A stretch of DNA of 60,284 nucleotides, filler included, from Sphacelaria rigidula (GCA_964200075.2; 10 parts of 10 records of this genome joined end to end with filler, not necessarily neighbours in it), one strand, 5' to 3'. Positions 1,813 to 42,170 are shown, counted from the whole stretch's first letter. The notes: generated by a model not told the origin, from the letters alone. Program-made: numbers and translations.

Positions 1813-2589
1813 CCCCGATACAAGATACCAAACGTAAAAAACCGCCTCACGACTTGAGTTTTCTTCTTCAAAATCCTCACGGGGTACCGTACCGACATGT
1901 AGGCAAGTTATTTTTTATCGCCATTCTGGAAAAATTTTCAAGGTACGAATCGCGTATGGTGTATGGGTGCATTTGCCTCATATTCATGATCAGATTGAGG
2001 GGAGACTTTAATGAGGCCGCAAATTCGGGGCACCACACTTTTTCGAATCACAACGGCGGCCTTTTGAAGGGTACTTAATGCCTTGACCGCGAATACCCCT
2101 GTGTCTCTCATGTGCCATTTTGCTGGTATACCACGAGTTGGAATTGTTGCCTACAGAACCGCCTGGGGGGAAATTGAATCGTATATGCAAAGATGATGGT
2201 AAACAGTTAGTTTCATCGTGAAGTGCACAGTACAGTAGTAGCAGTTCTATGTATCTTCGCTGTGGTCCGTGATGCTGTGGTGGTTCCCAGACGATCGAAC
2301 TGAAGGGGTCCGGGAGCCGACGGTGAAGAATGAATGATAGACAACGTTTAACCGCCTCAAGCTCGCACTTGGCCCCCCCCCGCCCCCCCCCCCCCCCCCC
2401 CCCCCCAACACCCCCCGCCCCTCCCCCGCCCCACCACTGNNNNNNNNNNGAGTCAACCAAAGGGGGCCGGGGACCGCCGGGGAAAAATGAATGATCACCA
2501 CCGTTCACCCCCCCCCACCCCCCCCGTGGCCCCCCCCCCCCCCCCCCCCCCCCTAACATTGCCAATGCGCCCGTGAAGCCTCTGTTTAG

Positions 2590-2700
2590 ATATGTAAAAG
2601 GTTTTCGTGTAAAGGGTGAAAGAAACGTAAGAGCGCCGAAATGTTGGAGGTGTTGCCGTAAGCAGCAGAAACGGTGCTGCGTCTCGAAGGGAATGCGTTT
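2590..2700 (+). mobile_element. Degenerate 3' end fragment of the RTEX-like LINE, lying between C-runs
   Basis: aagaaacgtaagagcgccgaaatgttggaggtgt...cggtgctgcgtctcgaagggaatgcg matches 17151-17229; C-runs at ~2508-2553 and ~2725-2732. Confidence 0.7.
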
Positions 2701-2795
2701 CTATTTCAAAGAGATGCGACACCGCCCCCCCCGATTTTGCCTCATCCCACACCCCCAACCTGGACGAATATTCGTCGTTGTTGCGTCGCTTCCAG

Positions 2796-5023: not shown

Positions 5024-5439
5024 AACACGGGATTTTACAAATTGGGGATGGATCTTTTATCGAGAATGGAAACCCGGAGGTTCAAAATCTTCGTATCCGC
5101 ACCAACTCTTCCAAGTATGCCTCCATTTGTTTACTTGCTGGTAGCTGTTGACAACTGCTACACGCCATACAAGTCTGGATTTCGATAACCGAAATATCCG
5201 GGCCCGAGCTGAAGAACCAATTTTGGCGTCCGAAATTCCCTCAAATTGTTCCTTCACCTAGGACCCCGACATTTCGGTTATCGAAATCCAGATTTGTATG
5301 GCGCGTAGTAGTTGTCAGTGGCTACCAGCAAGTAAAAAAATGGAAGCATACTTCGGAGAATCTGGTGTGGATACGAAGACTTTATTTCTCCGGGTTTTCA
5401 TCCACAATAAAAGATCTCCAATTTGTGAAATCCTGTGTT
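5024..5439. mobile_element. Foldback/MITE with ~195-bp inverted arms and a short spacer
   Basis: AACACGGGATTTTACAAATTGG...ctggatttcgataaccgaaat mirrored by atttcggttatcgaaatccag...CCAATTTGTGAAATCCTGTGTT. Confidence 0.85.
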
Positions 5440-5939: not shown

Positions 5940-6039
5940 NNNNNNNNNNNNNNNNNNNNNNNNNNNNNNNNNNNNNNNNNNNNTTAATTAATTAANNNNN
6001 NNNNNNNNNNNNNNNNNNNNNNNNNNNNNNNNNNNNNNN
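5940..6039. other. Artificial contig spacer (44 N + TTAATTAATTAA + 44 N); first of nine identical spacers (others at 11979-12078, 18018-18117, 24057-24156, 30095-30194, 36133-36232, 42171-42270, 48209-48308, 54247-54346)
   Basis: Identical 100-bp structure with stop codons in all six frames, separating segments of 5939 bp (x4) then 5938 bp (x6), which indicates size-sorted concatenated contigs. Confidence 0.98.
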
Positions 6040-7752: not shown

Positions 7753-7805
7753 CTTCGTAGCAGAGGAAATAAAGAAATTGAGAGGGGACATGGGGGGGGG
7801 GGGAG

Positions 7806-8372
7806 GTGTACTCATGATCTTGCATGCCATAGTCATCTGATCATTGACCTCGCACCCCTACGAAGCCGGGACGGAGCACGCCGGGGTTCGCCGGACCAGG
7901 CTCGCAATCGATCACCAAGTGCGAAGGGCCGTGGTGTGCTCGGCGAGTCGCATGAAGGGTGAGCTGCATCCTGCTAAGGTTGTTCGACCCGAAGCATTCT
8001 GATTGTCTTGCATATGGATGACAGCCTCCCATGAGTTGCATCATTACCTGGTACCATCACTTCCAGAGACAGCCACGGCTCACACACTGCCTCATGGGTG
8101 TCTCACCATATAGACACAACGTAGTACGATCGTCCCCATTGTGCGGAGTTCAGGTTCTCCCACGCCGCACAACATGGTCTAGCTCGACTACCATCATGGT
8201 TACCGCAAAAAAAACGCAACCGAGCAAAACAAATCGGTATCGTGATTGCCTAGCGTACGCAGTGAGTGGCGTGTTTTACAGCATCATCGCTAAGCGACGC
8301 CAACTCCATACGGGGTTCTGCCCCTACAAAGCCGGGACGGAGCACACCGGGTTTTCGCCGTACCAGGCCAGT
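7806..8372 (-). mobile_element. ~570-bp non-coding retro-like element sharing the LINE 3' tail, with a ~48-bp internal direct repeat, flanked by G-rich runs; intronic
   Basis: Begins (plus strand) G-run+GTGTACTCATGATC; direct repeat ccctac.aagccgggacggagcac.ccggg.tt.gccg.accaggc at 7855-7901 and 8321-8368; homologous copies at 35782-36132, 36233-36280, 40556-41130, 60269-60284. Confidence 0.85.
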
Positions 8373-9364
8373 CGAGGGGGCAGGGAGGAGGGGGAGAGGG
8401 GAAGGAATGGGTACAGAAAAAAAACTGCATTTACCTGATAGTAGTAGCAGTGTGTGTGTTTTAACGTATTCATGTCCATGACCAGGTTCAAAGACGGCCA
8501 TGAGAAAAGTTGGGCCATCCTAGAGCCCATACTAACCTTTGACAAAACAAAGCAGGCAGGCAGGACTTGCTTCCGAACTCGGGTAGACAACACTTGCACG
8601 CGAGATTAAAATCATCATAGTATGTTACACCAGGTGTAAAATCAAAGGATGTTGTCGATGACTCTCCATTGACTAATCCTGCCAGACCCGCAACCGACTA
8701 CCAAAGGCGGTCCGTATGTGATTGAGTGATGGATCGATTGCGCACATGAAGTGGTCCCCAAGGAGTCATAATCCAGTTGTGGTCATCATCCACAAGATAC
8801 GCGTTCCCAAAGTAAAATAAACACGAAAACGCTCGCTGAAGGAAGGAAGCTCGAGTTCGGGGGAATATGAAAGGAGAGAGACAGAGACAGAGACAGATAG
8901 AAAGGGAGGTACAGAAAGAAACAACAGAGTATAAGTTAAGAACGAGAAACAGCGGTGAAACGAAAATGATATCGGTTGAACAAGTTGAATAGCTTCTTCG
9001 CGGTTTAAAGGGACGAGGGATGAACACAACGAGATTCTGACAAGAAGCGGGGGACTTCCCCCCGCCTTTTCCTCGGGGCGAGCCCGTGGTGTGAAGGGAC
9101 CAACCTGTTCCTCCATCGGTACCTGCCTTGCAATCTAGTATTGAGCATCATACCGGCACTACTGTAGCTCGTCAACTTGCAAGGGAGTATTTATGTTCAA
9201 GTCACGTTCTCACCCTTTCAACGACAAAAACCAAATAAAACGACTCGTGAGCGTCGGGATGTCCAACCCACCGCTTCGCTCAAACTGGCCGATGATGGAT
9301 GATGTACTACCAGTCTGGCCGCCGAAGCGAGGAGGGGGCTGAAAAAAAAGAGGAATAGACTCAC

Positions 9365-11200: not shown

Positions 11201-12145
11201 CTAGAGGTATCACGAACAAGCGTTCGGTGAAGAGGTACAGGACAGATTAGCCCGTGGGGTCGGCGATGGTGAAGAAACAAGGCTTTGCATTATGGGCTCG
11301 CCGTAGAGTAATTGTCACACATTGGAGGTCACACATCAAGTCTACGCAAATGGGCTACATGATCACGTGTGTTCAACGGGCCAGCCTGCTGCAAACAGAA
11401 GTAATGTCCCGTCTAGATTCCGCGGGAGTGTAGGCAACATGTTTCATTTTAAGTCTCTGACCGGCAGGGTTGATCGTCTGGGTCTCATCGGCATTTTTGA
11501 GGTGAAAATTATGCCATTTCAATAGGTGATCCATTCTGGCGGTCAAAGGGCTAACGGAATCGCAACTGATATTCGTGCGTTCAACAGACGGGTGAAGTGT
11601 CGGGGTAGGACCCTTGGTATAGTACGTCCACTCGCTGTGAGTGGTTGTGCCAAAGAACAGTGGATTTTCGAAAATGGGGTTGAAAACAAAATGAGGTTCA
11701 ACTCAAAAGCCGTGCTTTCCTTGTCCAAAACCCGTGACAAATGACTTTCATATGGACCACCTCATCCCTTCCGACCTCTCTAGAACTATTTTGAGGGATT
11801 TCTAGCCTTCCATTCCCCCAAAGGGTGTGTGTGAAAGGACGATTTTGGGGACCAAAAACGTCCTTTTTTCACCCCGAAATCGAGGGGGAAATGTGCTTTC
11901 GCACACACCCTTTGAACAGCCGATCATCTATGTTGAGGATGGTGCTTTTCATTGAGGATGAGAACCCGGAGGATTAAANNNNNNNNNNNNNNNNNNNNNN
12001 NNNNNNNNNNNNNNNNNNNNNNTTAATTAATTAANNNNNNNNNNNNNNNNNNNNNNNNNNNNNNNNNNNNNNNNNNNNGTGCAAGACAGATATGCCACTT
12101 CAGCCCCATATTTTGTATGAACCCCAAAATTTAAAATCGGCTGTT

Positions 12146-12457
12146 AAATACTCTACTTGAATCTGGGGTAGATTGAGTGCGACCTCGAATACTCTATTCA
12201 AGTTTTAGGTAAGTGCTCCCTTACTCAGGTATAGAGTATCACTTGGATATAAACTCAATACTCTACTCAGATTTTGGGTAGATTGAGTATGACCTTAAAT
12301 ACTCTACTTGAATTTGGGGTAGATTGAGTACGAACTCAAATACTCCACTCGAATTTTGGGTAAATTGAGTATGACCCCAAATACTCTACTAAAATTTTGG
12401 GTAGATTGAGTACGACCTCAAACGTTCTACTCAAATTTTGGGTACTAGAAGTATGAC
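12146..12457. repeat. Tandem minisatellite, ~41-bp palindromic monomer (about 6-7 copies, one interruption)
   Basis: Consensus aaatactctactcaaattttgggtagattgagtaygacctc repeated head to tail. Confidence 0.9.
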
Positions 12458-13179
12458 TTTTCAAAAACACCGACTATTTAGTAATATGCTCTACTCGACC
12501 TGCCCTTGGTAATCTCCTCTTGTATAAGTTGATCCAAAAAAGAATCGGAACAAGAAGAAACACAAACAAGAACAACAACAGGAAATGCACGCATGATGAA
12601 TATCCAATCCCCTCCGTGTGCTCCAGAGATAGATGGACCCTGCCTAGCTATATAGCCCGGTGGCCCAAGAAGATCAATACGAAGTGAAATGCAGGCCAGA
12701 GGTTTCGTTAAACGCATTGCATAATGATAATAAGTCGAAGGTTGGAGATGAAGAACATGGTTTATATATGTTATCATTTGGCGTGATGGTCTCAAACCGA
12801 GGAACTGCGCAGCCAAGTGCAGGGGCTACCGACGTGGCAGGCCGGCCGATGCTACTTGTTATAAAAGGAGGGCTGGCGCTCAAAGGGTCGAGAATAGTAA
12901 GTAATGATGTTTAACTTTAGACCATAATGGCAAAACTCGGAATATGGCAGATGAGAATTGTAGAAAAATCAATGATGAAACAAGTGTCCGGAACGATGAG
13001 CTCACTAATAATATTATTAGGTGACACAAATATATAATTGAGAAGCGAATGAAGAAATACTTGCGCAAGCACTATATTTGCAGGCGTCACTTCCTTTTCC
13101 TGGGTAATAAGTGAGTATACGGCGTAAGGGGAAAAAACAGTGACACGTATGTACAGCACCCCCCCAACCCCCCTCCCCC

Positions 13180-16100
13180 AAATGGGTGGGTAAAGTACTA
13201 GTATAGTAGTGCTGATATTCGGAGTTCGTAGCGATATGAGAAGAATAGAGTGTCAAATGAAATGCAATGGAGTTGGACTATACTATTTGGCAAGAGGAAA
13301 AGTAGAAAGGGAGGGAGAACACTTTCGAGTCAAGCTAAAACAGAGCGCTAGCAAGGAGTGGGAAAGGATAGAGGCGAGTAAGGTGTCGGCACGGGTTAGG
13401 AGAGTATGATGGAGAGTATGCATAGCTAATGGAACAACAACCGAGGACGTAGTCCACGGGTAAACGGAGGGGGAGAGAGACAGGAACACGGAAGTGCCCG
13501 GAACGGGCAGAAAGGGGAAGAAAGGGGAAGAAAGGGAATATGGCGGCCGGAAACAAATAAATAGACAAGACGAACGCAGAAACGGGAAGGGAACAACAAT
13601 CAAGCGAGGGGAATTAAGATTAAAAGCGACGGAGAGAGAGCAGTAGACAACACGAGGGCAGGTAATGATTTGGAAAGGAAGTTAAGAATAGGATCGTGGA
13701 AAGTATGCGGATTCGTCACAGACAAATGTAAAAGAAGAGAGATAGCGCAACAGGTAAGTAGACACGAGGTAGATGTAGTAGGAATCCAAGAGTCATGGGA
13801 GAAAGAGGGGGCGGGAATAGCATGCAAAGTTGAAGAGTACGCATGGATAGAGAAAAGGTGGAAGGAACAGAAGCCCAAGAGCAGGGGAGCGGGGGAAGTA
13901 GGATTCTTAATCAAGGAATACCTGTGTGACAGGATAGAAGTGATCGGCGAAACGGAATTCGACGAGAGCATATGAATAAGGGTACCAGGAGAGCGGGGAA
14001 CGAAGGACTTCTTAGGGAATATCTACATGCCCCCAGAATCGAAGAGTAGGGTGAACGATATACAACGGAGGTGTGGAGAGATAGCAGCAGATGTACATAG
14101 GTATAAAAGCAAAGGAGAAGTAATGTTAGTGGGAGATTTTAATGCAAGGGTAGGAAGAGCAGGTCAACCGGACGATAAGATTGGGCAATACGGCGAAGAT
14201 AAGAATAATACGAATGGGGTAGAAATGCTAAAGTTCCTTGAGCATAACGAGATGAAGATGCTGAACGACAAACCACAAAAGCCAGAGGCACAATGGACAT
14301 GGACTAGAAAATGCAACGGGGAAGAGAGAGAATGCTCCGTTCTTGACTATTTAGTGGCAGATCATGGAATAAGTAAAGAAATCGAAGTACATGTGTGCGC
14401 GGACGGTGAGGAAACCACAGATCATTGCCTGATATGGACAGAAAGTCAACAGACGAGAGCTAAACAAATAGCTGGGGTAGGAAGTTGTACAAATGGAGAA
14501 TCGATCAACTAGATATGGAAGAGAAATGACAAGAGTTCCAAGATGAGATGGCCATGAATGCGGTGAAATTTTCCGAGCTGTTGGAGAGCGTAGGTACAGT
14601 TGATACCGAAATAGACAGAAATCGGGCAGGAGCGAAGATCATAGAAGGATGGGAGCCGTTGGTTAAGACCACAGCGAGTAAAGTCATGGGGAGGAAACTG
14701 ATCGTATGCAACAGAGCAGTAATATGGTGGGATGAGGAAGTAAAAGAGGCTATACGAGTAAGGACGGAGGCCCACGCGAGATGGATATCGAGTAAAAGTA
14801 CGGTAGGAGGGGAGGAGTATACTAAAGCTTGAAAGGAAGTAAAAAATATGGTACAGCAGAACAAGAAGGGAGTATGGGAAGGTGTAGTGGAAAAAACAAA
14901 TGAAGATGTCGATGGCGGGATGAAACAAATGTGGGTAGGGATAAAAGGGAGTAGGGGAAACCAGGCAAGAAAGATGGACAGGGGGATAGCTACACTCCTG
15001 GCTCAGAACGGTAAAATGGTCAGTAGTTCGAAGGGGGGGAGTGTAGTTCTAGTCAAGCACTACCGTAAACTAGGAATGCCAAAAACTAACACGAAGGTCG
15101 AGACGGAAATCGAAAAAGAGATCAACGCGTGGGCGGAGGCAAATGTACGAACGTCAAAACGGAAGGATAGAGGCTCCAAAGAATTGCAGAGAGAGTTCAC
15201 CAGAGATGAAGTAAAGAAGTGCATAGCTAAACTCAAGGGAAAAAAATAAGCAGGGGCAGACGAAGTAGTGAATAAACTTCTCAAGTACGGGGGAGAGGGA
15301 ATGATTATCATGATGGTTATGCTGTACAACTGGATCTGTGAAAACGAGTACACACCCAAGAGGTGGAGAGAAGGGGTAGTCGTCAACCACTTCAAAAAAA
15401 GGGACAAGGCTGACCTAGGAAGTTTTAGAGAGATAACGCTACAAAGCACCGTAGGGAAAACATTCTGTAAGATTCTGAACAATAGTGTGGGAACGATGCT
15501 AGAAAAGGGAGAATCAGCGAGTGGCAAGCAGGTTTTGGACCAAACCGTAGTTGCGTAGATCATGCGTACACACTAGATGAGATTGTTCAGGGTAGGAAAG
15601 ACACCGGGTTGACAACGTACTGTTTCATTCTGAGCGTGCAAAAGGCTTATGACACAGTATGGAGAAATTACTTGTGAAAAAAGTCGTGGAAAGCTAGGAC
15701 CAGAGGAATGATATGGAGGATGGTAAAGAATATGACATATTGTGCCAAAAGTGCCATGATGCTAGACAGGGAAATATCGAAATATTTCGATACCTTACAA
15801 GGAGTTGCACAAGGATGTACGGTATCACCCACTTTGTCCGAGGTATTTATTAATGACCTGATAATAGTAGTAGAAGCAGCAAAGCAAGGGGTCAAGGTGG
15901 GTGAAGACATGGTATTAGGATTGATGTTCGCGGGTGGTTTTATGGGGATTTCAGAAACAACACAAGGATTGCAGACACAGATAGACAAGGCGCTAGAACA
16001 CACGAGGAAACGGAGAGTGACAGCGAACGTCAAGAAATGCGCGGTACTTATCTGTAACGAAGATAAGAAAAATCCGGTAGAGTTCAAATGGAAGTGGGGA

Positions 16101-17271
16101 GAAAAGGAATTGCCGATCGTAGACCAGTAAATATACCTTGGCGTAGAGATACTGAAAAACTGTTCTTGGGATGCACACATAAACAACGCAATGCAAAAGG
16201 GTAGGGCACAGATAGGCAGGATGGACGTGATCCTCCGAGACTCGCACCTGGATACTAGGATTAAGAGATGTGTCCTGATGTGAACGTGGTTGTACAAAAG
16301 CTGGAATATGCCGGAGAAGAATGGGAGAGGAACGTAGAGTTGGTTGAAAAGTTCGAAACAGCGCAGATGGCAGCAGCTAAGAAGATACTTGGATGCTCGA
16401 AAACGACGAGTAATACAGCATTGAGAGCAGAGTTGGGAATGTACTCGCTAAAAACTAACAGAGACATGAGAAATTGCGATGGCAATATAGCGTAAAAAAC
16501 ATGCAGAGAAAGATATTGTCACCCATAGTTGATAGGGCTGTATGCAAGAAAATCAGGAAAGGGCGGGCTGGAATAAGGTGTGATATATAAGTCGAGAAAG
16601 TATGGAAGGAGATAGGAGGTAACCACGACGAAATACTGCTCATAGATGAGGGCGCGGGGTACAAAACAAAATCGAGAGACATAATAGGAATAAGGGGAAA
16701 AGGAGCGCTCAGACGCAAAATAGACGAGGAAGAAGACCTGAAGATTCACGGGGGGTTGAGAGAGGGGATAGAGATGAAGGCATATTTTGCATGACCGAAT
16801 GGACGCTGCGAAAAACCTGAAACTGCGATTTCGGGTTGGGGACCTGGACCTGCTAGAAAGAAGAAAGGGATACACCAGTCGTCGTGTGGAGGAGGGAGTA
16901 GATGGACAGAATTGCTCTTGTGGCAAAGCAATAGAGAGCAGAACTCATACAGTGTTAGAATGTGAACTATACAAGGAGGAACGGGGCGTGATAGAGGGGA
17001 AAATGTAGGACGTGAACGAAGATGGCATGAAATCGTTTGATGCATTAGACAGTAGCGAGAAAAATATGGCTATACTAGGTGATAGATGCTGGCCACAGAC
17101 GGCGAAACAGGACGGGGATAATATGTCTAATATAAACTTGTGATATATGGAAGAAACGTAATAAGCGCCTGAATGTTGGAGGTGTGTCTATGAGGAGTAG
17201 GAGTGGTGCTCCGTCTCGAAAGGGATGCGGGGTCAATGGTGAAACGACTAAGGCAAGCGACAAATGGGTAC
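13180..17271 (+). mobile_element. Near-full-length degenerate non-LTR retrotransposon (APE endonuclease + RT + C-terminal CCHC), RTEX-like; multiple stops and frameshifts
   Basis: APE motifs LRIGSW.V.G, VVGIQESW, VMLVGDFNARVG, LDYLV, TDHCLIW (13680-14440); RT motifs FREITLQSTVGKTFCKILN, KAYDTVWR, GVAQGCTVSPTL...FINDL, LMFAGGF (degenerate FADD), YLGV; ALRAELG; CSCGKAIESRTHTVLEC. The 5' boundary is inferred from the C-run at 13159-13179 and is uncertain. Confidence 0.93.
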
Positions 17272-18644
17272 GCTTCCTTCCCCCGGTTTTGCCGATTTGA
17301 GCATTTTCGGGCTGCGGCTCCTAGGACAACCTGCTACGAGCTCCTCTGCGTGAACGCGCAATAAAAAAAACACCTTCCTCATATAGCCATGGCAGAATAG
17401 TGCTGCGTGCCTTCCTATTATAGTGGCAAGACGTCTTTTTTCCCCATACCTGCATATCAAGCGCCGATTTAATGTCCTTTCAGCGTCATTTAGCCCTGCA
17501 AAACTATTCTCCATGAACTCCGGGGACTGTTAGTGGGAAAAATCTCAAAGAAAAAATTACGGGCGTTATAAGAGTCAACAAAGGTATCAACGAAAGTCGC
17601 GACCGGCTGCAGAAGTGCTCGTATCAATAGTTCAATCTTCGACGATAAAATCTAAGGCAGACACAGGGGGAAATGCATTGATCCTTTGATACTGCGGACT
17701 TGTTTTGAGAAGGGGGAAGGGGGCAATTGAGAGTGCGACGAAAAAGTGGAATTGTAGTAGATTCACTGATGTATTGTGTTGATTGCGTGGGAACCAATCA
17801 TATATATTTCACCATATATTATACCGACCTGAAACAATCAATCGGTACTCAGTTTCGTCGACACGTGCTTGCAGGTTTCACCCGTTGATCGTGTGGCTAT
17901 TGTATGCTTGGTGGGCATTCGGAGTCAGTCAACCCTTGTACGTACACTCATAACAATATTTTCGTGAGATTGAGAGTAGATGATACGATTGGGAGTGAAA
18001 AGCGGTCAATCAGTGAANNNNNNNNNNNNNNNNNNNNNNNNNNNNNNNNNNNNNNNNNNNNTTAATTAATTAANNNNNNNNNNNNNNNNNNNNNNNNNNN
18101 NNNNNNNNNNNNNNNNNTGGTCTTGTGTGTACGGTCAGTGCGGTCCTGTCTCTACAAGTCTTGGGTGCGTGGGCAGTCTGTACTGCATCGCGAGTGCTGT
18201 TCGCATCACGCTGCATACACAGACCTGAAATGCGAGCTACAATGCTGTCTATCTATGAGTGTTTGTACAGCACTCGTCATCGACCCTGCCCTGTGCTCTT
18301 CTCATGGGGTAAAGAGCTGCCATGAGACTGGCGAGCGAAGGACAATGAAGCAACACGCTGACTACCCGCGAGCATCAGCGGCAGCAGTGATCATGGCAGC
18401 CAAGCCACCCATGGCTGCTGTCGTGGGCTGGAGGGTGGGTTGGCGTGGGGCGCGATTTCAAGCGCGTTTTCTGATCACATAGGAAGTGGGTTATCAGAAC
18501 ACGCGTTTTTGAATAGAGCTCTCTTCATACATGAGAACTAGCCGACGGGCACCGTCAGCGTCACGTACCACGGTAACATCAGGCGTTAAACGACACAATA
18601 CAACGCCTCAAACACTGGTGGATGAGCCGCGACATGCACAGAAT

Positions 18645-18902: not shown

Positions 18903-19333
18903 TTCGCACATACGTCCTGTGCATCGTGTCAAAATTCTCATCGAAAACGATCCAAAATTAAGCGCAGGAAATGCGTTTGAATTACTCGTAACTGGTCCAC
19001 CTCCATATACTACAGTAATCGCTTGTCGACGGAATGACGCATTTCCTGCGCTCAATTTTGGATCGTTTTCGATGAAATTTTGACACGCGATGTACAGGGC
19101 GTATGTATGTGCGAACACCCCACCTTCCAACCCCTGTTTTTCTCTTCCTCTCCGTGTGTTTTTGGCGAAGGAATATTTCAGAACAGTTTTTCCGGAACAA
19201 GATTGCCAGTAACTCAGGAAGAAAAACAAAAAAAAATAGAGGATTGAAAATGGGGTGTTCGCACATACGTCCTGTACATCGTGTCAAAAGTTCAACGAAA
19301 ACGATCCAAAATTGAGCGCAGGAAATGCGTTTC
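18903..19333. repeat. Three ~80-bp units in alternating orientation (+,-,+)
   Basis: ttcgcacatacgtcctgt.catcgtgtcaaaa...aaaacgatccaaaatt.agcgcaggaaatgcgt at 18903-18977 and 19258-19331; reverse complement at 19036-19115. Confidence 0.9.
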
Positions 19334-21741: not shown

Positions 21742-22957
21742 ACCCCACGGGGTGTAGCCGAGTGTCCACCGGTGATGTGTTCTTGCACAAGGTATGGAAA
21801 CACCACCCTGTCAAGGTGTGCCTTATTAGCAGAAGGTATCGGAACATCACCCTGTCAAGGTGGGCCTTACGCCGGGGTATCGAATTAGTACCCTGCCAGT
21901 ATGTGTCCTTGCACAAGGGACGGAAACATGACCCTGTCAAGGTGTACCTTAGCACAGGTATCAAAATATTACCCTGCCAGTATGTCTCCTTGCACAAGGT
22001 ACGGAAACATCACCCTGTCCAGGTGTGCCTCGGCAGAAGGTACCGGAACATCACCCTGTCAAGGTGTACCTTAGCACAGGGTATCGAATTGTGACCCTGC
22101 CAGCATGTGTCCTTGCACAAGGTATGGAAACATCACCCTGTCAAGGTGTGCCTTAGCAGAAGGTATCGGAACACCACCCTGACAGGGTATCGAATTAGTA
22201 CCCTGCCAGTATGTGCCCTTGCACAAGGGACGGAAACATCACCCTGTCAAGGTGTACCTTAGCAGAAGGTATCGGATCACCACCCTGTCAAGGTGTACCT
22301 CCTTAGCACAGGGTATCAAAATATTACCCTGCCAGTATGTGTTCTTGCGCAAGGTATGGAAACATTACCCTGTCAAGGTGTACTTTAGCAGAAGGTATCT
22401 GAACACCACCCTGTCAAGGTGTACCTTAGCACAGGGTATCAAAATATTGCCCTGCCAGCATGTGTCCTTGCACAAGGTACCGAAACATCACCCTGTCAAG
22501 GTGTACCTTAGCAGAAGGTATCTGAACACCACCCTGTCAAGGTGTACCTTAGCACAGGGTATCAAAATATTACCCTGCCAGCATGTGCCCTTGCACAGGG
22601 TACGGAAATATCACCCTGTGTGCCCCGGCACAAGGTATCGGAGCATCACCCTGTCATCAAGGTGTACCTTAGCACGGGGTATCGTAACATTACCTTGCCA
22701 GGGTGAAGACTTGTCCAGGGTATGGGGTATCACCCTGCCAAGGTCAGCTTGGTGCGAGGTATTGACACACTACCTTGTGCAAGGTCTACCAGTTTATAAG
22801 GTATTACCATCAAACCCTGTCAAGGTATTCGTGCCGACAAGGGACTGTCAAGCGACCCTGCCAGGGTTCCATACCCTACACAAGTTCATCACAGGGTCTC
22901 CACAGGGTGTTGGCCTCGACAGGCACCCCACGGGGTGTAGCCGAGTGTCCACCGGTG
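21742..22957. repeat. Array of roughly 27 palindromic 41-bp monomers (123-bp trimeric higher-order repeat) bracketed by perfect 33-bp direct repeats
   Basis: ACCCTG-type monomer start at 22326, 22367, 22408, 22449 (41-bp period); accccacggggtgtagccgagtgtccaccggtg identical at 21742-21774 and 22925-22957. Confidence 0.93.
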
Positions 22958-25099: not shown

Positions 25100-25830
25100 T
25101 CACGGTTTGGACGAATCATGGCCGATCCAAATCACCAAATCCATAATTTCTTAGTCCTGGTTGCTCGAAAGAGATGAAAATGTCGACCGGTGGTCAAACA
25201 GGTCTCCACGCAACTTTTGCGCCATTCCACGTGCCTGGGCTGCGCGTACCTGGGTTGCAACGCTGAAAACAAAGCCTAAGGCTACGTCTTATGTATCGAA
25301 AAGTAAAACTTGTTGAAAAGTGCTGTTTTAGCCCTTCTCCGTCGTTTTTGTCCCCCAAAGAGGGCTAGGCGGATGTGGACACCTTGGAATGACTTGCTCT
25401 ACTCGCTGAGACCGTTCCAGAGGACCTTTGCGTTTTCTGTAGGTCACAGTTTCGTTCTTGGCCAACAATGAATTTTGAATTAACAAATGGTCGAGTTATA
25501 AAAAAAATAGCAGTTTTCCCCCTGTTTTTCGATAACTTGACCGTTTGTTATTGAAAATTCATTGTTGGCCAAGAACGAAACTGTGACCTACAGAAAACGC
25601 AAAGGTGCTGTCGAACGGTCTCAGCGAGTAGAGCAAGTCATTCCAAGGTGTCCACATCCGCCTAGCCCTCTTTTGGAGACAAAAACGACGGAGAAGGGCC
25701 AAAAAAGCACTTTTCAACAACTTTTACTTTTCGATACATAAGAAGTAGCCTAAGGATTGATTCGTACGGTACGAATCAATTTCACTCAAATCAAGTAATT
25801 TCCGGACAATTCATTAATTCGTCCGACCCT
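25100..25830. mobile_element. Terminal part of a DNA-transposon-like host element (end AGGGTCGGACGAATTAATGA), interrupted by a MITE; uninterrupted copy at 35182-35420
   Basis: Sequence on both sides of the MITE joins into the reverse complement of 35182-35420; both copies abut TGA/TCA. Confidence 0.8.
25280..25750. mobile_element. PIF/Harbinger-type foldback MITE, 471 bp, TAA target-site duplication
   Basis: TAA|GGCTACGTCTTATGTATCGAAAAGTAAAA ... TTTTACTTTTCGATACATAAGAAGTAGCC|TAA; ~230-bp near-perfect inverted arms with a ~11-nt loop. Confidence 0.92.
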
Positions 25831-29997: not shown

Positions 29998-30039
<42 letters not shown>

Positions 30040-33000
30040 TTTTTTTTCCCCTCTTTTCTTCCTCCTTTTTTCCTTTCTTTTTTTTTTTTTTTTTNNNNNN
30101 NNNNNNNNNNNNNNNNNNNNNNNNNNNNNNNNNNNNNNTTAATTAATTAANNNNNNNNNNNNNNNNNNNNNNNNNNNNNNNNNNNNNNNNNNNNTGTGTT
30201 GTTTTGATTTTTTGGGGCCACTTCTTGCGCGAAATTCCAAGTCAAATCGTCGTTGAAAGGAGCAACGGTTGTTCAAACGAGCTTGCTATAGATACACGAC
30301 GCTCAATAATACTGCTCGACACCGTTTTCAACCAAATACAAGCGCACCACGAGGGTGGCAGGTCGTCCGACACGCCTATTGACCAATTTTTTTCGTGCAA
30401 TGAAATACCCCCCACCCCCCCCCCATCGTACCATGACTCGATTCTTGCTTGCCACGTATTTTGCATCTACTGCATGCTGAACGTAACTTTTGTGTCGATA
30501 TTTTGTACCTTCACGTTGACGCCGGTGATGGCGAATCTCTCAGGTGCGCTCCGGACAAATTCGTTGCTTGTTTGAAGGGCTCCGAGAAAAAAATTGCCAG
30601 CCATTTTGGTCACTGAAATATTATATTTTGCATGATGTACAAATACTACAATACTGAGAGCAATATGTTTTGCATTGCAACATTTGAATCATCGTCGTCG
30701 CCTCTCACCCATCGTTTCCCAGCAAGTACGAACACTGACAAAAACGGCGTCATCTTGTGAATGGCGAAATACGTGTATCTTTCAATGCATCGAAAAATAT
30801 ACCTGCATATCTATTTTGCGGAGATGACACGTGCCGCACTCTCCGCTTCGATCGTGTACAAATAAATCCAAATTCAAGCTCTGATCCCGCAGAAAGCTGC
30901 AGCCATTGCCACTCGAACACTTTCTTCGCCGAAGCAACGGAATTTTCTCCCAAGCCCAAACGGAGATAGTCACGAGTATATTATGGATGATAACCCACTC
31001 CCGCTGAAAACATCAAGTGACTGCTGCTTTGATGTACACATGGCTTGTGACACGACTTGCACACTACTACCACACGGTCCACCGACTGACTCACTAATGG
31101 CAAGGGCCCGCTGAGCAAGGTTTTGGCGCATACAAGTACCGCCCTCCACGTCGATCCTTCGCTCGTCTCCCCAGAGATTCATTAAAAAGAAGAGACCGAA
31201 TCGGAGAAGGAAAGGCAACTCCAAAAATATCTGTATCCCGCGCACCCTGCACATACATTCATTTATGTTTCCTTGTGACATGCAATGCAGTACAATACAG
31301 TACAAATATTGCTCAAGGCTGAGAAGGAGAAAAAAAAACATGAAATGAACGCTAACGCACTTCGTCACACTTCACTTCTCCTCAATCTCCAAGACGTGAG
31401 ACCTTTTTATTTGACATAGAATTTTCATCATGCATGGGGACAAAACTAAATACGGATGATTCGCGAAGGTTCCAACACAAAAAACATATCATCATCGGAA
31501 ATGATGTATCATCACATCTGCCTTATCGACGTCGTCATGACCTATACTACTACTACTGCGTGGATACGCTACCTATTACTCGGCCGAGCTTGGGGACAGA
31601 ATCAACGTCCTGCTTAGCTTTCAGGCTTGTGGCGCACCGTCGAGAGGGCGGGTGAAAAACAGTGCATGAAGGAAACAAAAATACCCACCCGGACAAGAAT
31701 AGAAGGGGGAAAATCACTCTTTTTCATATTTCTTGAACGGGAAAATATTCGCGGTTACATTTTGTGGGGGAGGAAACATCACAAGTACCTGCCCTCTCGT
31801 ACCCCTTTTTTCCGTTTTTGATTCACGAGATTCGACTTTTTCACGTGGATTTGCACATAAGTAACCCAAAATAAATTGATGTCACAAAAGACACTTCAGT
31901 TTTTTTTTCTCAAGTGTGAAGAAAAAAATCAGGATACACAATTACATGAGTACACCGAAATGTGTTCCTCAATTACTGTAGCTCACGCATGTCTCAAAAG
32001 TCGCGGGCAAAACTGTTTCCCAACTATAGTACGAGCATAAATAATTTCTAGCCAATACTCAACTACAGGAGGAGGAAGCGCCTGACGGCGCTGCGCGGAA
32101 CCAAAGATGAGGGTCGCGTACACGCGCTCTACTTATCGTCAACCACAAAAGTGTGGTATTTTCTGTCCCCCAACTTCATTTTCCGATTCTCCGCTCACTT
32201 TCTTGTCTCTGCACCCGCTACCCGTATCATGCATACATCCTACCCTACTGAGGTCATGTCCCGAATCGTTCAATCTCTTTCCTAGAGTTATTTGCTACAA
32301 CTGTCACACTACGACACGAAGCTGTCGGTGGCACGACTCTTGGCGTCGAACACCCCTACCCCTCAGTAAACAACGACCCGCGTCTATACATACACAGGTG
32401 TCATTACTGGTACTCGTGCATACTTCTCCGTTGCTGTTTGGCGCCCTCTTCGTCGGCGTGGCCAGACCAAAAAAAAAAAAAAAAAAAAAGGAGACGACAG
32501 CAAAATACAACAACAAAGAAACCATAGTGATCGCCCTTGCCACATGCATAGGACGTCAAAAGTACGAAAACACACGCTCGCGAGGGCGATTAGACAAGGG
32601 AAAAAAAAAAAGGCATGTTCAATAACACAGTATGTATATACTGTGCTATAATAGTGGGCAGCGGATGTGTGATACGACGACAACGCGACAACAGTTTCTA
32701 ATGCGCGGGCACGAAACAAACATTGACCACTCCGCTATTCGGCTTGCTCTCTGCGCACAGCACACACGCACAATAGCTACACTGCAGCGACAGCAGCAGC
32801 AGCAGCAGCAGCACGAACAACTGAACCGAACACACAGATCGACACCAACGACATATAGATCGCCATACACGCAGAGAACACACATCACACATCGTCAAAC
32901 CCAGTGCACGTAACAACCCATGCACGCGGCGACGCCCGACAGCGCAAAACAGTTTTGTCTCCTCGGTGTCCAAAGTTCGTGTCCGTCTATCGTTGCGCAG

Positions 33001-35634: not shown

Positions 35635-35781
35635 CTGGATGGCGAAGAAACGACACGAGCATCGCAACCATACACCGAGGGTACGGTTAGTGTAAAGACG
35701 TGGCGAGGGTAGGGCGGTGAAGAAAGGAGAGCACATAGGAGGGCGGGCTGGGGGCGGGCTGGGAGGGGGTGGGGGAGGGGG

Positions 35782-36132
35782 GTGTACTCATGATCATGCA
35801 TGCCATAGTCATGTGACCATTGACCTCGCATCCCCAGAAAGCCAGGACGGAGCACACCGGGTTTTCGCCGGCCAGGCTCGCAGTCAAATCACCAAGTGCG
35901 ACGCACCGTGGTGTGTTCGGCGAGTGGCATAAAGGGTGAGCTCCATCCTGCTAAGATCGTTCGCCCCGAAGCCTACTGATTCATCTTGCATTTGGATGAC
36001 AGCCTACAATGAGTTGCTTCATTTTCTGGTATCGCCACTTCCAGAGACAGCCACGGCTTATACACCACCTCCTGGGTGTCTCACCATGCAAGCACTACGT
36101 AGTATGACCATCCCCTTTGTGCGGAGTTGAGG
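35782..36132 (-). mobile_element. Copy of the ~570-bp poly(C)-anchored element, truncated by the contig end
   Basis: G-rich run then GTGTACTCATGATCATGCATGCCATAGTCA...; colinear with 7806-8150. Confidence 0.88.
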
Positions 36133-36232: not shown

Positions 36233-36280
36233 TACAAAGCCGGGACGGAGCACGCCGGGTTCTCGCCGGACCAGGCTACG
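36233..36280 (-). mobile_element. Terminal direct-repeat end of the ~570-bp element followed by a G-run
   Basis: tacaaagccgggacggagcacgccgggttctcgccggaccaggctacgtGGGGGG. Confidence 0.8.
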
Positions 36281-36352
36281 TGGGGGGAGGGGGGGGGATA
36301 ATAGTCCGAAAAACCCGTGGAGCGTTTGAAGTATACTCTTCCCACCCTATAC

Positions 36353-38784: not shown

Positions 38785-38947
38785 CTGCCGATGGAAGACG
38801 GCGAGCGGGGGGGGGCGGGGAAGAGTGTAAAAGTGACGTTACGAGTAAGTTTTGAGCAATAATTCCGATGTTGCATGCTCAGAGATCAATAGGAATTCGA
38901 CTCCTGGATGATGACCGACAAAAATAAAGTATGTGAACACGGGGGGG

Positions 38948-39510
38948 CGTACTCATGTTTTGCATACGGTAGCCACTATCATAGAAGACCGTTGACCACG
39001 CGTGCTTGGCAGGACAGATGGAGGGAGGGGGGGGTGGCATCCCTACCAAGCCTGGATGGAGCACGCCGGGTTTTCGCCGGATCAGGCTCGAAATCGCCGA
39101 GCACGAAGCGCCGTGGTGTGTTTGGCGAGTCGTATGGAGGGTGAGACACCTCCAATATTTGGGCGCTCATAACGTTTCTGCCAGGAATGACACAAAAACC
39201 CTTTACATGCCTCATCACCTTCTTGTTTCGCCGTCGTCTGTGGCCACCATCTATTGTCCTGGTATAGCGGTCCTTTTCTCGCTACTTCCTATTGTACCAA
39301 ACGTTTCATGCAACCTTTTCATTCACCTCATACATTTCCCCCTCTGACAATTCCCGCCGGGTCCTCCTTGTAATAATTCACGCTTTAACATTATACAAGT
39401 CATACTCCCTATTGCTTTGCCACGGGGGCGATTCTGTGCATCTGATTCCTCCTTCACTTGACTACTGGTAAACGTCTTTTGTCTTTCGGACAGGTCCAGG
39501 TCTCCCGTCC
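38948..39510 (-). mobile_element. LINE C-terminal fragment whose 3' region is the long tail shared with the ~570-bp element, followed by a third short tail variant
   Basis: GDLDLSERQKTFTSSQVKEESDAQNRPRGKAIGS matches the LINE at 16840-16940; it runs into ctcaccctccatacgactcgcc...cccggcgtgctcc; separate tail ...gcgtggtcaacggtc...catgagtacgCCCCCCC at 38941-39020. Confidence 0.82.
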
Positions 39511-39764
39511 GACACTTTCTACGATAGCCCCCCCAAAAAACCAGCCCAAAAGTGTCACGAAAAAAATGGCCAAACAGCGCCTGGTATTTGGGTTCAGGCT
39601 GCGTGAAGCGCCTCATATTGGCAACATTGGCGAAAACGAGCCCAAGCGTGGGAATTCCCAGCTGCTCGTTGTACTCGGCTTTTCCCACTTCGATTTACGT
39701 GAAGATTTTGCCTCCCAAAACCATGCATTTTTTTGGGGGGGGGGGGGCTATCGTAGAAAGTGTC
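39511..39764. mobile_element. MITE with GACACTTTCTACGATAGCCCCCC TIRs and apparent 4-bp TSD; second copy at 51554-51799
   Basis: gtcc|GACAC...GTGTC|gccc here; ctcg|GACAC...GTGTC|ctcg in the other copy. Confidence 0.88.
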
Positions 39765-40055
39765 GCCCAAATCCCATTTTCATTTCCCTTTTCTTTTTTG
39801 GGGGGGGAGAGGGTATGCGACGCCAGAATAAAGTCAACACGCACCGTACTGTGCTTTTGTGAGACAAAATATCGGAGAGTGTAAGAAGTTACACAGCGTA
39901 TGGGTGGCTCCCTATGTGCAAAATAATTTCCAAACTGTTGGCGCGACGTGACAAACCTGTCGGGGTGCGTGCGGGTATCCTGGGAGCACAGCAGATTCCT
40001 GTATCTCTGCAGGCATGATACCCCAATCTGAACAAGTGAAACGCGGAGAGCATAC

Positions 40056-40135: not shown

Positions 40136-40555
40136 CTGTTGTTCGTCACCGGGAACGAGGTCGATCAATCAAAACTGTTGAAAATTCACACAGCAAACAG
40201 TGACCACGAAAACAAATGTCCAAGTGGCACCGAGACAACGTGGAATCAAGAGGTGATGCATGATAGGAACCAGCAGGTTAAAAGATAGCTGCACCCGCGG
40301 CGTTGCTGGAGAGTTGTTCACCGCATAGATAGACGAGAAAGTTCATGTTGAGACGGCGTGACACGTGTTGTACGAGGAGACGTCCGTCGCTCTCCGCCTC
40401 ACTAATGGCACAGCAATGGCACTTAGGTCACCCTGCATATAATTTCCTAGGCCTGTGACTCGCCGTGCACGCAAGAACTAACGTACAGGTGGTCTTGCAG
40501 GTGCATGTCGTTCTCTTTTACTCTCCGGTAGTGCAGGGAGCGCGGTGTGGAGGGG

Positions 40556-41130
40556 GTGTACTCATGATACTTGCATGCCATAGTCATATGACCAATGACC
40601 TCGCATCCCTACAAAGCCGGGACAGAACACAACGGGTCGTCGCCGAACCTGGCTCGTAATCAATCACCAACCGCAAAGCGCCGTGACGTGTTCGGCGAGT
40701 CGTATGAAGGGTGAGCTGCATCCTGCCAAGATTGTTTTGCCCGAAGCGCACTGATCATCTTGCATTTGGATGTTAGCCTCCGATGAGTTGCTTCGTTTTC
40801 TGGTGTCGCCACTTACAGAGACAGCCACGGGTTTCACACTGCCTCATGGGTGTCTCACCAATCGAAACACTACGTCGTACGATCATCCCCTTTGCGCGGA
40901 GTCGATGTTCTCCCACCCCGCACAAAAAGATCTAGCTCGACCACCATCATGGTTACGGCAAAAAACAAACACAAGCAAGGGCGAAAGCAAATCGGTAACC
41001 TGGCTGCCTTACTGACGCAGTGAGTGGTGTGTTTTACAGCTTCATTGCCAAACGACTCTATTATAACCCCACAGGGGGTTCGTTCCTCTCGCCGGGACAG
41101 AGCCCGCCGGGTTTTCGCCGGACCAGACGC
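40556..41130 (-). mobile_element. Second full-length copy of the ~570-bp poly(C)-anchored element, intronic
   Basis: Colinear with 7806-8372; direct repeats at ~40607-40653 and ~41091-41127; G-rich runs on both sides. Confidence 0.88.
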
Positions 41131-41718
41131 GGGGAGGGACGAGGGAGGGGTAAAGGCACTGCTTGAACAAAGGAGTCACTTCTAGGCATCGCTGCATGTA
41201 GGAAAACCACTTTTTCAGGCTCAACATGACACATCCAAACACATCGCTCTCGGCAAGGCCTTCGCGCACAACACGGTTCATCGGAGAGCGTATCGAGCGG
41301 TTTAACGTGCCCATGGACCCCATTGCTTCTTATACTGTAGCATGTTACCCCGTCCCTTCCGGGGGATCACCTTCTACCGCTAGTCGTTTCGACAGCAGGG
41401 AAGAGTATGCACGGTATTGCGTTTCGCAAGGAAGCGAATCACCATTATTTGTTGGAGACGTCACCCTTTGCCCACTGAAAAGTAGCACTCTCAACCCATC
41501 TGCGACGTTCACCACACCAGCGCCTCGACTTGGAGGTGCAAGTTGGTCTTGTTAGCGGTTAAATGGGCTAAACGTGCGGAAGTCAAATGCCGATAATGAT
41601 ATGGCACGAGGCACAGGTGCGATATCGCTACTCTCCAGTTACCCGAAGACCATGGACGTGATTTGAAGGTATATCATAGGATATTTGGTCTGTTTGAGAG
41701 TCTGCCCATGCCACTCAC

Positions 41719-42016: not shown

Positions 42017-42096
42017 CTGTAGTAGCAGCATTTGTGGGGTCATTGCGAGTGTGGAGGCGTTTGTTCACACAGGAGAAATGGTAGGGGGGGGGGGGG

Positions 42097-42170
42097 GTAC
42101 TCATTTGTTGCTTGCCTTAGTCTTTTGACCATTGACCACGCATCCCTTTCGAGACGGAGCACCGTTCCTA
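42097..42170 (-). mobile_element. LINE 3' terminus followed by a 14-nt C-run
   Basis: Reverse complement reads cggtgctccgtctcgaaagggatgcgtggtcaatggtcaaaagactaaggcaagcaacaaatgagtac+C-run. Confidence 0.9.

Follow-up and report, generated by a model that had tools for sequence, protein, structure and literature searches.

The LINE family that we describe here from Sphacelaria rigidula (GCA_964200075.2) ends in a C-homopolymer of variable length and not in poly(A). In a stretch of 60,284 nucleotides of this genome (hereafter the window), in contigs from sequencing runs and in other assemblies, we observe the anatomy of the element, its C tail, C-runs on both sides of copies, chains of copies and a high abundance. 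On balance, we favour a reading in which an RTE-X-type LINE and a short partner, both ending in C, would insert by TPRT primed from a G-tract. Ten independent contigs, each 5938-5939 bp long and separated from the next by an N44-TTAATTAATTAA-N44 spacer, make up the window. The copies at 42084-42170, 42271-42345 and 54171-54246 hence do not neighbour one another, and each of them is interrupted by a contig end.

The longest copy (13180-17271, plus strand) is a dead, near-full-length, single-ORF LINE with an N-terminal domain, APE, RT and a C-terminal CCHC motif, delimited with Pfam and tblastn. Pfam finds Exo_endo_phos/Exo_endo_phos_2 (PF03372/PF14529) and RVT_1 (PF00078) on its ORF pieces and the same domains on the intact relatives P0004 and P0005, the AP-endonuclease lying upstream of the RT in one ORF, as in LINEs. 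Tblastn places residues 16-1360 of the 1360-aa P0004 on 13203-17264, at the cost of 11 stops and 7 frame changes, and the stop codon TGA of the relatives reads TGG at 17265-17267. Structures of L1 ORF2p and R2 match the RT region (E = 1e-20), self-comparison revealed no terminal repeats (LTRs or TIRs) around 13180-17271, and the sense strand is purine-rich (composition skew). Over its last ~535 nt, the copy has 80-84% nucleotide identity to L001 and L002, two loci from other assemblies. Directly upstream lies a C-rich tract (13159-13179, plus strand; C7 AA C6 T C5), which the preliminary description had already pointed out; it is preceded by ATGTACAGCA, and an ATG follows at 13182, 3 nt past the tract. 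The accompanying claim that the long element ends in a C tract and lacks poly(A) stands with one correction, as its own tail (17272-17284, plus strand) is merely the degenerate GCTTCCTTCCCCC. The RT fragment of another, diverged LINE copy occupies 43466-44622 on the minus strand (72% nucleotide identity to 15536-16671), with no 3' end detected.

The terminus of the long copy, GGCAAGCRACAAATGRGTAC, occurs three times with at most 3 mismatches, at 17252-17271 (plus), 42097-42116 (minus) and 54221-54240 (plus), compared to 0 expected from 100 shuffles. Related termini ending in CATGAGTAC lie at 7808, 35784, 38949, 40558 and 60271, all on the minus strand, in agreement with earlier placements near 7792, 35782, 38941, 40552 and 60269. 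Nine termini in the window, together with L001 and L002, make up 11 GTAC termini, all of which enter C-rich tracts: in the 12 nt past GTAC, C is found at 98 of 126 positions compared to 23% C in the window, and an A-run follows none of the 11. The central claim of the preliminary description, a 3' end of C and not of A, is thus borne out by every terminus counted. The ORF of P0004 and P0005 ends in VVNGQMTKASNK, which maps to the last bases before GTAC and its C-run, with the stop codon 3 nt before the tail (AAA-TGA-GTA-(C)n); the ORF ends of L001 and L002 are open over 176 codons and then read TGA-GTAC-G-C8 and TGA-GTAC-G-C10, respectively. A metagenome pattern scan yielded two loci, too small a number for a census of flanks. 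Because the tail consists of C and not A, it cannot come from polyadenylation, and tail formation and priming must therefore be carried out by the element's own enzyme. Copies of 66, 74, ~110, ~570 and 4092 nt end at the same terminus, the common 3' end and 5' truncation typical of LINEs. Folding the alignment of this 3' module gave 14 pairs, 0/14 with compensatory changes, and single 3' RNAs fold no better than shuffles (z = -0.86, -0.09, -0.44 and +1.18); Rfam has 0 matches in the window. GUGCUC and GAGUAC, which border a 64-nt unit, could pair with each other, a hint without statistical support.

Truncated copies of the LINE (family A) extend this picture. At 42084-42170 (minus), a family A 3' end (42098-42170, cut by a contig end) with 98.6% identity to L001 carries a C14 tail at 42084-42097; contigs of sequencing runs X1, X2 and X4 enter the G-run at 42084 from unique flank, and one from X1 crosses it into the element. 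A 5'-truncated copy at 54171-54240 (plus) sits between a C11 run, itself preceded by AAGTACCTTT, and a C tail, at least 7 long where the contig stops, the whole covering 54160-54246, and thus has C-runs on both sides as initially described. Beginning at a contig end, 42271-42345 (plus) holds a family A 3' end with an internal deletion (GGGAT/AAGTAC) and a 36-nt C/T-rich tail. The shared terminus followed by C had been proposed for these three places and is present in each, though cut by contig ends. Two further copies fared less well as examples of C-runs on both flanks. The family A-like 3' region at 2588-2732 (plus; 75-76% identity to L001/L002) does end in C8, but it diverges past GGGAATGCG, its last 27 nt before C8 are different and lack GTAC, and 35 nt separate its detectable 5' end from the nearest upstream run, C24. 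The 5'-truncated LINE copy at 38941-39520 (minus), whose terminus (38949) is of the family B type and whose tail is G+C7, has a G7 run as its 5' flank; the C8 at 39027-39034 that had been taken for its upstream flank belongs to its 3' region, within a 34-nt C-rich insert after GGGATGC.

Sequence comparison identifies family B as a non-autonomous partner of ~570 nt that has its last ~50-60 nt in common with the LINE; its last ~50 nt are 81-84% identical to L001/L002. All of its copies in the window are on the minus strand. The copy within 7792-8416 runs from 8368 to 7808 (561 nt), with a tail of ACCT+C12 (7807-7792) and a 42-nt C/T-rich tract (8410-8369), preceded by CTGTAC, as its 5' flank. 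The copy within 40533-41156 runs from 41128 to 40558 (571 nt); its C-rich tail has decayed, and the C-rich tract upstream of the copy (41149-41129) follows CCTTTAC; contig depth on its body is 1.4-4.9 million, compared to ~70 on unique sequence in X1. At 35745-36132, a copy cut by a contig end has its terminus at 35784 and the tail A C6 T C5 A C5 T CCC..., and at 60251-60284 a terminus, also cut, continues as A C9 A C9. A 45-nt module at a contig start (36277 to 36233, within 36233-36297) has loose ends and joints at 36277 and, on the sense strand, follows C9 T C6 ACGT. Depth on the family B body reaches ~70,000 times single-copy depth, which is not a copy number; an abundant, ~600-bp non-autonomous partner with a common 3' end and tandem occurrence is what characterizes RTE-X elements of the Ectocarpus type.

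A C-rich tract adjoins five of the seven identifiable 5' junctions in the window (the long copy, 54171, 8368, 41128 and 36277), and this tract is itself preceded by GTAC in three of the five and by TTAC or TTAT in the other two. The two junctions that do not fit are those of 38949-39520, with its G7, and of the 2588 copy, with its distant C24. To look beyond the window, we compared one of its contigs, outside which the 5' and 3' ends of the long copy lie, with Logan contigs of runs X1, X2, X4 and X6 (the last perhaps RNA) from three studies, at a minimum likeness of 88 and considering the best-supported rows. In a de Bruijn assembly, the number of contigs does not give the number of copies, and contigs break wherever a homopolymer exceeds the word size. 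Among the matches listed, 826, 744, 339 and 51 contigs continue at 42084 as G's and then as unrelated sequence; read on the element strand, these G's lengthen the C tail. At 42161, 276, 242 and 238 contigs (X1, X2 and X4) have loose ends with a near-all-G 30-letter consensus (agreement 0.46-0.48), which on the element strand is a C-run upstream of the 64-nt terminal unit. Joints that go back 74-78 letters, from 42161 to 42084/85/88, were found in 45, 29, 17 and 1 contigs among the matches listed and are head-to-tail chains of the family A unit (unit-Cn-unit). Joints to 42084-42090 from the family B boundaries at 36277 (36, 38, 14 and 0 contigs) and 40860 (41, 34, 24 and 5 contigs), again among the matches listed and with a fit of at least 22-44 letters on whichever side is shorter, we read as a family A terminus, a C-run of ~8-14 and a truncated family B copy. 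Over the termini, the contigs sum to a depth of 1.3-7.4 million, compared to ~70 on unique parts in X1. The presence of the same repeat on both flanks, a hallmark of repeat-targeting LINEs, is thus seen at 5/7 window junctions and agrees with the loose ends and joints genome-wide, where the original proposal that C-runs flank copies on both sides holds.

Whereas the flanks are directly visible, a C-run that existed before insertion is something we infer, because no empty (pre-insertion) site was seen: the sole comparable site, 42084, is filled in DNA runs X1, X2 and X4, and none of the joints listed skips a copy. We inspected four copies (the long one, 7792-8416, 40533-41156 and 54160-54246) and saw no TSD outside their C-runs; a TSD made of C's would be indistinguishable from the tail. 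The sharp common 5' ends at 42161, 36277 and 40860 are unlike random 5' truncation and might point to template switching or to a distinct short RNA.

These elements also account for a share of the G/C homopolymers. The window contains 186 C/G 8-mers compared to 1.6 expected, and [AG]TAC lies no more than 14 nt upstream of 13 of its 34 C-run clusters (background 11%, binomial P = 3e-5), compared to 4/33 in the downstream control. G/C runs adjoin both 10-N gaps and several contig ends, and 6/20 contig ends fall inside LINE or partner repeats, in line with the suggestion that the elements explain many of the runs and some of the contig breaks. The tails of the LINE and its partner thus explain long G/C homopolymers and breaks in this assembly, and probably do so in other short-read brown-algal assemblies.

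By analogy with L1 and microsatellite-tailed LINEs, we infer priming on G-tracts, a preference for pre-existing C-runs and slippage. The most likely mechanism would be TPRT whose G-tract primer mostly lies in the tail of an older copy. The RT would bind the conserved 3' module of its own RNA, and the nicked bottom strand of the target would offer a G-tract with which the C tail pairs and from which reverse transcription is primed, with slippage on the homopolymer varying tail length. New copies would enter (C)n.(G)n tracts that are already present, mostly the tails of earlier and often extremely 5'-truncated copies, each leaving a C-run on both sides and supplying a new target, with nested and head-to-tail chains (A-Cn-A and A-Cn-B), many orphan C/G runs and assembly breaks as the outcome. 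With somewhat less than even confidence, we extend this to the proposal that brown-algal RTE-X elements may be true mononucleotide-specific LINEs, whose EN/RT would nick and prime on (G)n and which would seed, extend and re-use their own (C)n tails as safe landing sites, generating most long G/C homopolymers and unit-Cn chains.

The upstream C-run would not be a target if the RT added untemplated G's to the end of the cDNA and then either joined the target or jumped to another element RNA at its C tail; C-runs at 5' ends and the A-Cn-A and A-Cn-B chains would thus both arise from one integration event. End-to-end template jumping is established for the R2 and L1 enzymes and counts in its favour, as do the sharply defined 5' ends after C-runs, the heterologous A-Cn-B joints, the extra unrelated letters in a few joints and the lack of a TSD outside the C-runs in the four copies. 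We still hold this to be unlikely, as the upstream tracts (11-42 nt in the window, and the 30-letter consensus at 42161) are longer than typical additions, three of the five window tracts have a GTAC terminus of their own, as the tail of an older copy would, and the curators of the Ectocarpus table interpreted C-rich flanks as TSD (PMC12477816). The position of GTAC before the upstream tract at 3/5 junctions and before the tail at 11/11 termini, with the ORF stop immediately ahead of GTA, could alternatively mean that GTAC(C)n is a specific target with its target-site duplication and that the element proper ends at TGA; this is improbable given the TTAC or TTAT at the other two tracts, the copy at 2588-2732 without GTAC before its C8, and the conservation of GAGTAC across families and assemblies, as expected of an element terminus. 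Satellite-like amplification of unit and Cn by unequal crossing-over or replication slippage, with the C-run merely a templated tail and no insertion preference, would account for the head-to-tail units, for a ~157-bp tandem with C24 runs at 2303-2553 and for the remark in the Ectocarpus table that the partner 'can be present in tandem' (PMC12477816), but heterologous A-Cn-B junctions with several C-run lengths (joints to 42084, 42086, 42088 and 42090), dispersed single copies between C-runs in unrelated contigs and the enrichment of [AG]TAC at orphan C-runs make it quite improbable. Finally, we reject sequencing or assembly artefacts such as dark-cycle poly-G, to which the 10-N gaps and contig ends beside G/C runs and the short-read origin of all compared contigs might point, as the runs are strand-specific (C after the sense-strand terminus at 11/11 termini) and occur inside contigs between unique flanks, G9 (38807-38815) and G7 (38941-38947) are covered by X1 and X2 contigs from two studies with no indel listed (the X2 contig differing at 7/1177 positions), G14 (42084-42097) is reached from unique flank in three runs and spanned in X1, and the same tail appears in two other assemblies and in the tabulated entries of the curated Ectocarpus library.

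The best protein matches of the window LINE are Ectocarpus proteins (57-71% identity; 66% over the RT region), and the Ectocarpus model P0011 ends in KTEEYVPP, which fits GAGTAC followed by C's. Supplementary file 1 of PMC12477816 annotates RTEX-1a_Ec32 as '(C)n 3'' and RTEX-2_Ec32 as '(C)n termini/TSD', with 'C-rich' in the TSD column, and lists the non-autonomous RTEX-N1_Ec32 and RTEX-N2_Ec32 alongside the autonomous RTEX-1_Ec32 and RTEX-2_Ec32. The supposition that the property had gone undescribed therefore fails, and because the trait is already recorded for Ectocarpus, the value of the present case lies in mechanism and scale rather than discovery. As tabulated there, RTEX-1_Ec32 and RTEX-2_Ec32 have a single EN-RT ORF, (C)n 3' end and C-rich flanks in common with the window LINE, and the 607-bp partner resembles family B in having ~60 bp of its 3' end in common with the LINE, being the most abundant family and occurring in tandem. 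Their consensus is longer (5.5-5.9 kb compared to 4.1 kb from C-tract to terminus in the window copy, whose nearest intact relatives carry ORFs of 1328-1360 aa), and the likeness is one of table descriptions and protein hits in another genome. From these shared features and protein hits, and not from a tree, we consider the family to be probably an RTE-X-type non-LTR retrotransposon; matches in the PDB, the ESM Atlas and a second homologue search carry generic or no clade names. The main text of PMC12477816, in the part consulted, does not discuss the C tail or targeting, and the same source records Ectocarpus RTE elements with (CAA)n tails and CRE elements with (CA)n tails. A literature search found no analysis of a C-tailed or (C)n-targeting LINE, which, with subscription journals and Repbase Reports outside its scope, is weak evidence of absence; a mention of poly-C in PMC9942856 concerns the TIR of a DNA transposon and was set aside as precedent.

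If insertion into G/C tracts is indeed targeted, the element would follow a 'safe-haven' strategy in which it makes its own landing sites, with possible side effects on G-quadruplex and i-motif forming DNA, and mononucleotide self-targeting would constitute a target system that propagates itself, of a kind that has yet to be analysed in LINEs. In either case, the family offers a natural system for asking how an RT chooses a homopolymer primer.

The window family can be likened to microsatellite-specific LINEs such as the HERO and the (TG)n-specific Togen families. Waldo, Mino, Kibi, Koshi and Dong are likewise microsatellite-specific or microsatellite-tailed LINEs. As in these, the tail is the same simple repeat as the other flank, copies chain inside the repeat and the element creates its own future targets; unlike them, the repeat is the mononucleotide (C)n, the clade is another and endonuclease specificity is putative. 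In the TPRT of mammalian L1, the homopolymer tail of the RNA pairs with a complementary homopolymer at the nick; L1 is also frequently 5'-truncated and mobilizes short non-autonomous partners. The window family differs from L1 in a tail of C rather than A, in having almost no 3' UTR and in its conserved 3' module, which suggests stringent recognition of the template.

The long LINE copy at positions 13180-17271 (+ strand) represents an autonomous APE+RT family of probable RTE-X type (family A), whose ORF pieces at 13565-16130 match Exo_endo_phos/Exo_endo_phos_2 and RVT_1 and whose best protein relatives are Ectocarpus sp. proteins with 57-71% identity. By tblastn, the alignment with an intact 1360-aa relative (P0004), which has APE at residues 170-414 and RT at residues 740-989, opens at 13203 with residue 16 and runs to 17264, where the protein ends. 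The copy shows 11 stops and 7 frame changes against this protein and is therefore dead. Its ATG (13182) lies 3 nt past the C-rich tract 13159-13179. At the other end, ORFs of relatives finish with ...GAPSRKGCVVNGQMTKASNK and younger copies read ...AAC AAA TGA GTA C(n), so that the stop codon stands 3 nt before the tail, leaving next to no 3' UTR. The start of the long copy (13180-13200) reads AAATGGGTGGGTAAAGTAC and its end (17260-17271) AAATGGGTAC; both contain AAATGGGT and GTAC, perhaps by coincidence or as a relic of head-to-tail copying.

Further copies of family A lie at 42098-42170, 54171-54240, 42271-42309, 2588-2724 and 38949-39520. A non-autonomous partner (family B) is present as two copies of 561-571 nt without ORF (8368 to 7808 and 41128 to 40558) and as partial copies (36132 to 35784, 60284 to 60271 and 36277 to 36233); over the final ~50 nt it shares 81-84% identity with family A, and a 45-nt piece of its 3' region recurs at its 5' end. 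The family B terminus (7792-7860, 35745-35840 and 40533-40610, - strand) is one base longer than its family A counterpart, which puts its TGA out of frame; read in the family A frame, it would run on into the C tail as poly-proline. Many protein relatives (P0020-P0070), with RT identity of only 41-52%, share the extreme C-terminus ...G[CR]VVNG plus ~6-8 residues, where their ORFs stop. Comparison of these ends suggests that an RNA 3' module (17220-17264), which is also coding sequence, is under constraint, and not the peptide alone. Folding of this module found no statistical or covariation support. The abundant 64-nt unit 42098-42161 (- strand) begins with (G)UGCUC, predicted, without statistical support, to pair with the terminal GAGUAC and so close two small hairpins; both arms are invariant across families A and B.

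The 20-nt terminus occurs three times with at most 3 mismatches, compared to none in 100 shuffles, and a sister terminus, ...CATGAGTAC, accounts for five further occurrences. The preliminary description had proposed a C tail in place of poly(A), and this is borne out: C-rich sequence follows each of the 11 GTAC termini examined (nine in the window, two elsewhere), with C at 98 of 126 positions in the next 12 nt compared to 23% overall, and an A-run follows none of them. We regard the C tail as almost certainly a genuine feature of the element. A twelfth 3' end (2588-2732) departs from the others 27 nt ahead of its own C8. Three copies, at 39035 (-), 42299 (+) and 2698 (+), leave the consensus just past GGGAT(GCG), where a small GAAA-loop hairpin ends, and meet a C-run shortly afterwards; alternative 3' ends or template switches could explain these departures.

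C-runs were also expected on the other side of the copies. A C-rich tract adjoins five of the seven 5' junctions that fall inside contigs (13159-13179, 54160-54170, 8369-8410, 41129-41149 and 36282-36297); at a sixth, C24 (2530-2553) lies 35 nt upstream, and at the seventh G7 (39528-39534) comes first. Together with the joints and loose ends in public sequencing runs, these junctions uphold the expectation. Three of the five adjoining tracts are themselves preceded by GTAC (ATGTAC, AAGTAC and CTGTAC) and the other two by TTAC and TTAT; judged from sequence, an upstream tract with its own GTAC looks as an older copy would if truncation had left little but its tail. None of the four copies checked (the long copy, 7792-8416, 40533-41156 and 54160-54246) showed a duplication beyond its C-runs. 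Another high-copy repeat, with depth up to 2 million, occupies 39510-39765 and 51525-51799; its motif is GACACTTTCTACGA[TC]AG, then C7-C13, then an A-rich stretch. The motif forms an inverted pair of 25 nt, 100% identical (39510-39534 / 39741-39765), whose placement accounts for the sense-strand G-run upstream of the truncated copy 38949-39520.

In public metagenome or WGS contigs, a degenerate terminus pattern matched two loci (L001 and L002). In both, the last 176 codons are open and end ...KASNK-TGA, followed by GTAC-G-C8 in L001 and GTAC-G-C10 in L002; the short copies in the window match L001 at 98.5-98.6% identity, so they are young. We also compared contig 7 (36233-42170) at 88% likeness with Logan contigs from four runs (X1, X2, X4 and X6) that belong to three studies. 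Single-copy depth on this contig is ~70 in X1, 20-39 in X2 and 7-16 in X4, and the terminus bins in X1 reach 1.3-7.4 million; by these summed contig depths, which are not copy numbers, the families are very abundant. The loose ends and joints given here are the best supported of a larger set, which holds another 2010 joints and 4324 loose ends. At the outer end of the tail (42084), at least 826, 744, 339 and 51 contigs (X1, X2, X4 and X6) continue into more G's and then unrelated sequence. At 42161, 64 nt from the terminus, at least 276, 242 and 238 contigs (X1, X2 and X4) continue into a 30-letter consensus that is nearly all G (agreement 0.46-0.48), which on the element's strand places a C-run ahead of a discrete 64-nt unit. 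Joints that go back 74-78 letters, from 42161 to 42084/85/88, show unit-Cn-unit chains in at least 45, 29, 17 and 1 contigs (X1, X2, X4 and X6). In the same order of runs, joints connect 42084-42090 with the family B boundary 36277 in at least 36, 38, 14 and 0 contigs and with the family B boundary 40860 in at least 41, 34, 24 and 5; the shorter side of these joints matches over at least 22-44 letters, so that the contigs hold a family A terminus, a C-run of ~8-14 and a truncated family B.

The data thus show a LINE with APE and RT in a single ORF, a C-homopolymer tail whose length varies, and C-runs on either side; it is highly abundant, and C-runs link units of the same family and of both families into chains. 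Because the tail cannot stem from poly(A), the reverse transcriptase must start within the C-run, where the conserved 3' module presumably guides it. In the L1 model the A tail pairs with a T-tract primer, and microsatellite-tailed LINEs are alike. By analogy, the C tail would anneal to a G-tract where the target is nicked, and priming would take place there; insertions would then land in pre-existing (C)n.(G)n tracts, most of them tails of earlier copies, with slippage changing tail length. The main rival is that untemplated G's are added to the cDNA and the enzyme jumps between C-tailed RNAs, which would also yield 5' C-runs and chains and suits the oddly sharp 5' ends at 42161, 36277 and 40860, but accounts less readily for how long the upstream tracts are and for the GTAC termini that they carry. 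On balance we lean slightly towards a preference for insertion into pre-existing C-tracts, and targeting of C-runs by the family is plausible. A sequencing artefact is ruled out as the source of the G/C runs, as X1 and X2 contigs cover both G9 (38807-38815) and G7 (38941-38947) with no indel listed, X1, X2 and X4 contigs reach the unique flank and the G-run at 42084 (X2 with 16 differences in 988 nt), so that this insertion is shared and its homopolymer independently reproduced, and a strict strand rule holds, the sense-strand terminus always being followed by C.

The family was further proposed to account for many G/C runs and several contig breaks in this window of 60,284 bases, which is not one locus: ten independent contigs of 5939 or 5938 bp lie end to end, parted by nine spacers, N44-TTAATTAATTAA-N44 (5940-6039, 11979-12078, then every ~6038 bp), so that features on different pieces are not genome neighbours. 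There are 186 C/G 8-mers compared to 1.6 expected, and 28 C/G runs of at least 8. [AG]TAC stands within 14 nt upstream of 13 of 34 C-run clusters (at least 7 C) against a background of 11% (binomial P = 3e-5), and downstream of 4 of 33 (Fisher P = 0.014); a good part of the 'orphan' C/G runs therefore probably consists of tails of these elements. Of the 20 contig ends, six fall inside families A or B (36132, 36233, 42170, 42271, 54246 and 60284). The proposal thus holds for some contig breaks and probably for a share of the runs. Contig end 30094 sits in a C41/T-rich tract (29999-30094), where the longest run of the window, C41, has no LINE terminus upstream and gives way to T-rich sequence up to the contig end. 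Two 10-N gaps (2440-2449 and 55501-55510) are true scaffold gaps, both flanked by long C or G runs. Around the second (55419-55600) lie G-runs of 22, 13 and 29, directly followed by a (GTAGCTT)4 microsatellite; the first separates two ~157-bp tandem units (2303-2553, 78% identical), each ending in a C-rich stretch and C24 that come after a different terminal motif, AATGAATGAT.... Elsewhere, tandem arrays occupy 21775-22790 (period ~120 bp) and 12144-12457 (shorter units), and long, near-perfect palindromes without spacer, at 5024-5439, 18908-19330 and 25272-25758 (self inverted repeats, 74-90% identity), could be foldback elements or assembly artefacts.

Our literature search returned no paper analysing a C-tailed LINE, which is weak evidence of absence as the bracketed 'poly(C)' is unsearchable. 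The Saccharina genome paper, in the part available, records Jockey, RTE, RTEX, L1 and CRE LINEs with no tail data. The tail and flanking C-runs of the preliminary description hold; its view that such a family was undescribed was wrong, since the table of the Ectocarpus curated TE library lists RTE-X elements with (C)n (PMC12477816). Main-text passages of that paper make no mention of a C tail or targeting, and name RTEX-N1 as the most abundant Ectocarpus family, with >6000 copies (PMC12477816). The remaining interest is mechanistic, in a LINE that may be specific for a mononucleotide and create its own landing sites; in practice, the family offers an explanation for the G/C homopolymers of brown-algal genomes and for the breaks in their assemblies. 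The last residues of one Ectocarpus gene model (P0011), ...KTEEYVPP, are compatible with GAGTAC running into C's. In the library entries, RTEX-1a_Ec32 is a 5867-bp element with 'single EN-RT ORF; (C)n 3'' and a 'C-rich' TSD, RTEX-2_Ec32 (5582 bp) has '(C)n termini/TSD', and RTEX-N2_Ec32 measures 188 bp; the non-autonomous RTEX-N1a_Ec32 (607 bp, TSD 'C-rich') has a '60 bp 3' end 83% RTEX-1/RTEX-2' and 'can be present in tandem', and tails of other Ectocarpus LINEs are (CAA)n for RTE and (CA)n for CRE (PMC12477816). Feature by feature, as far as these entries describe them, families A and B match the description of the Ectocarpus RTEX elements (PMC12477816).
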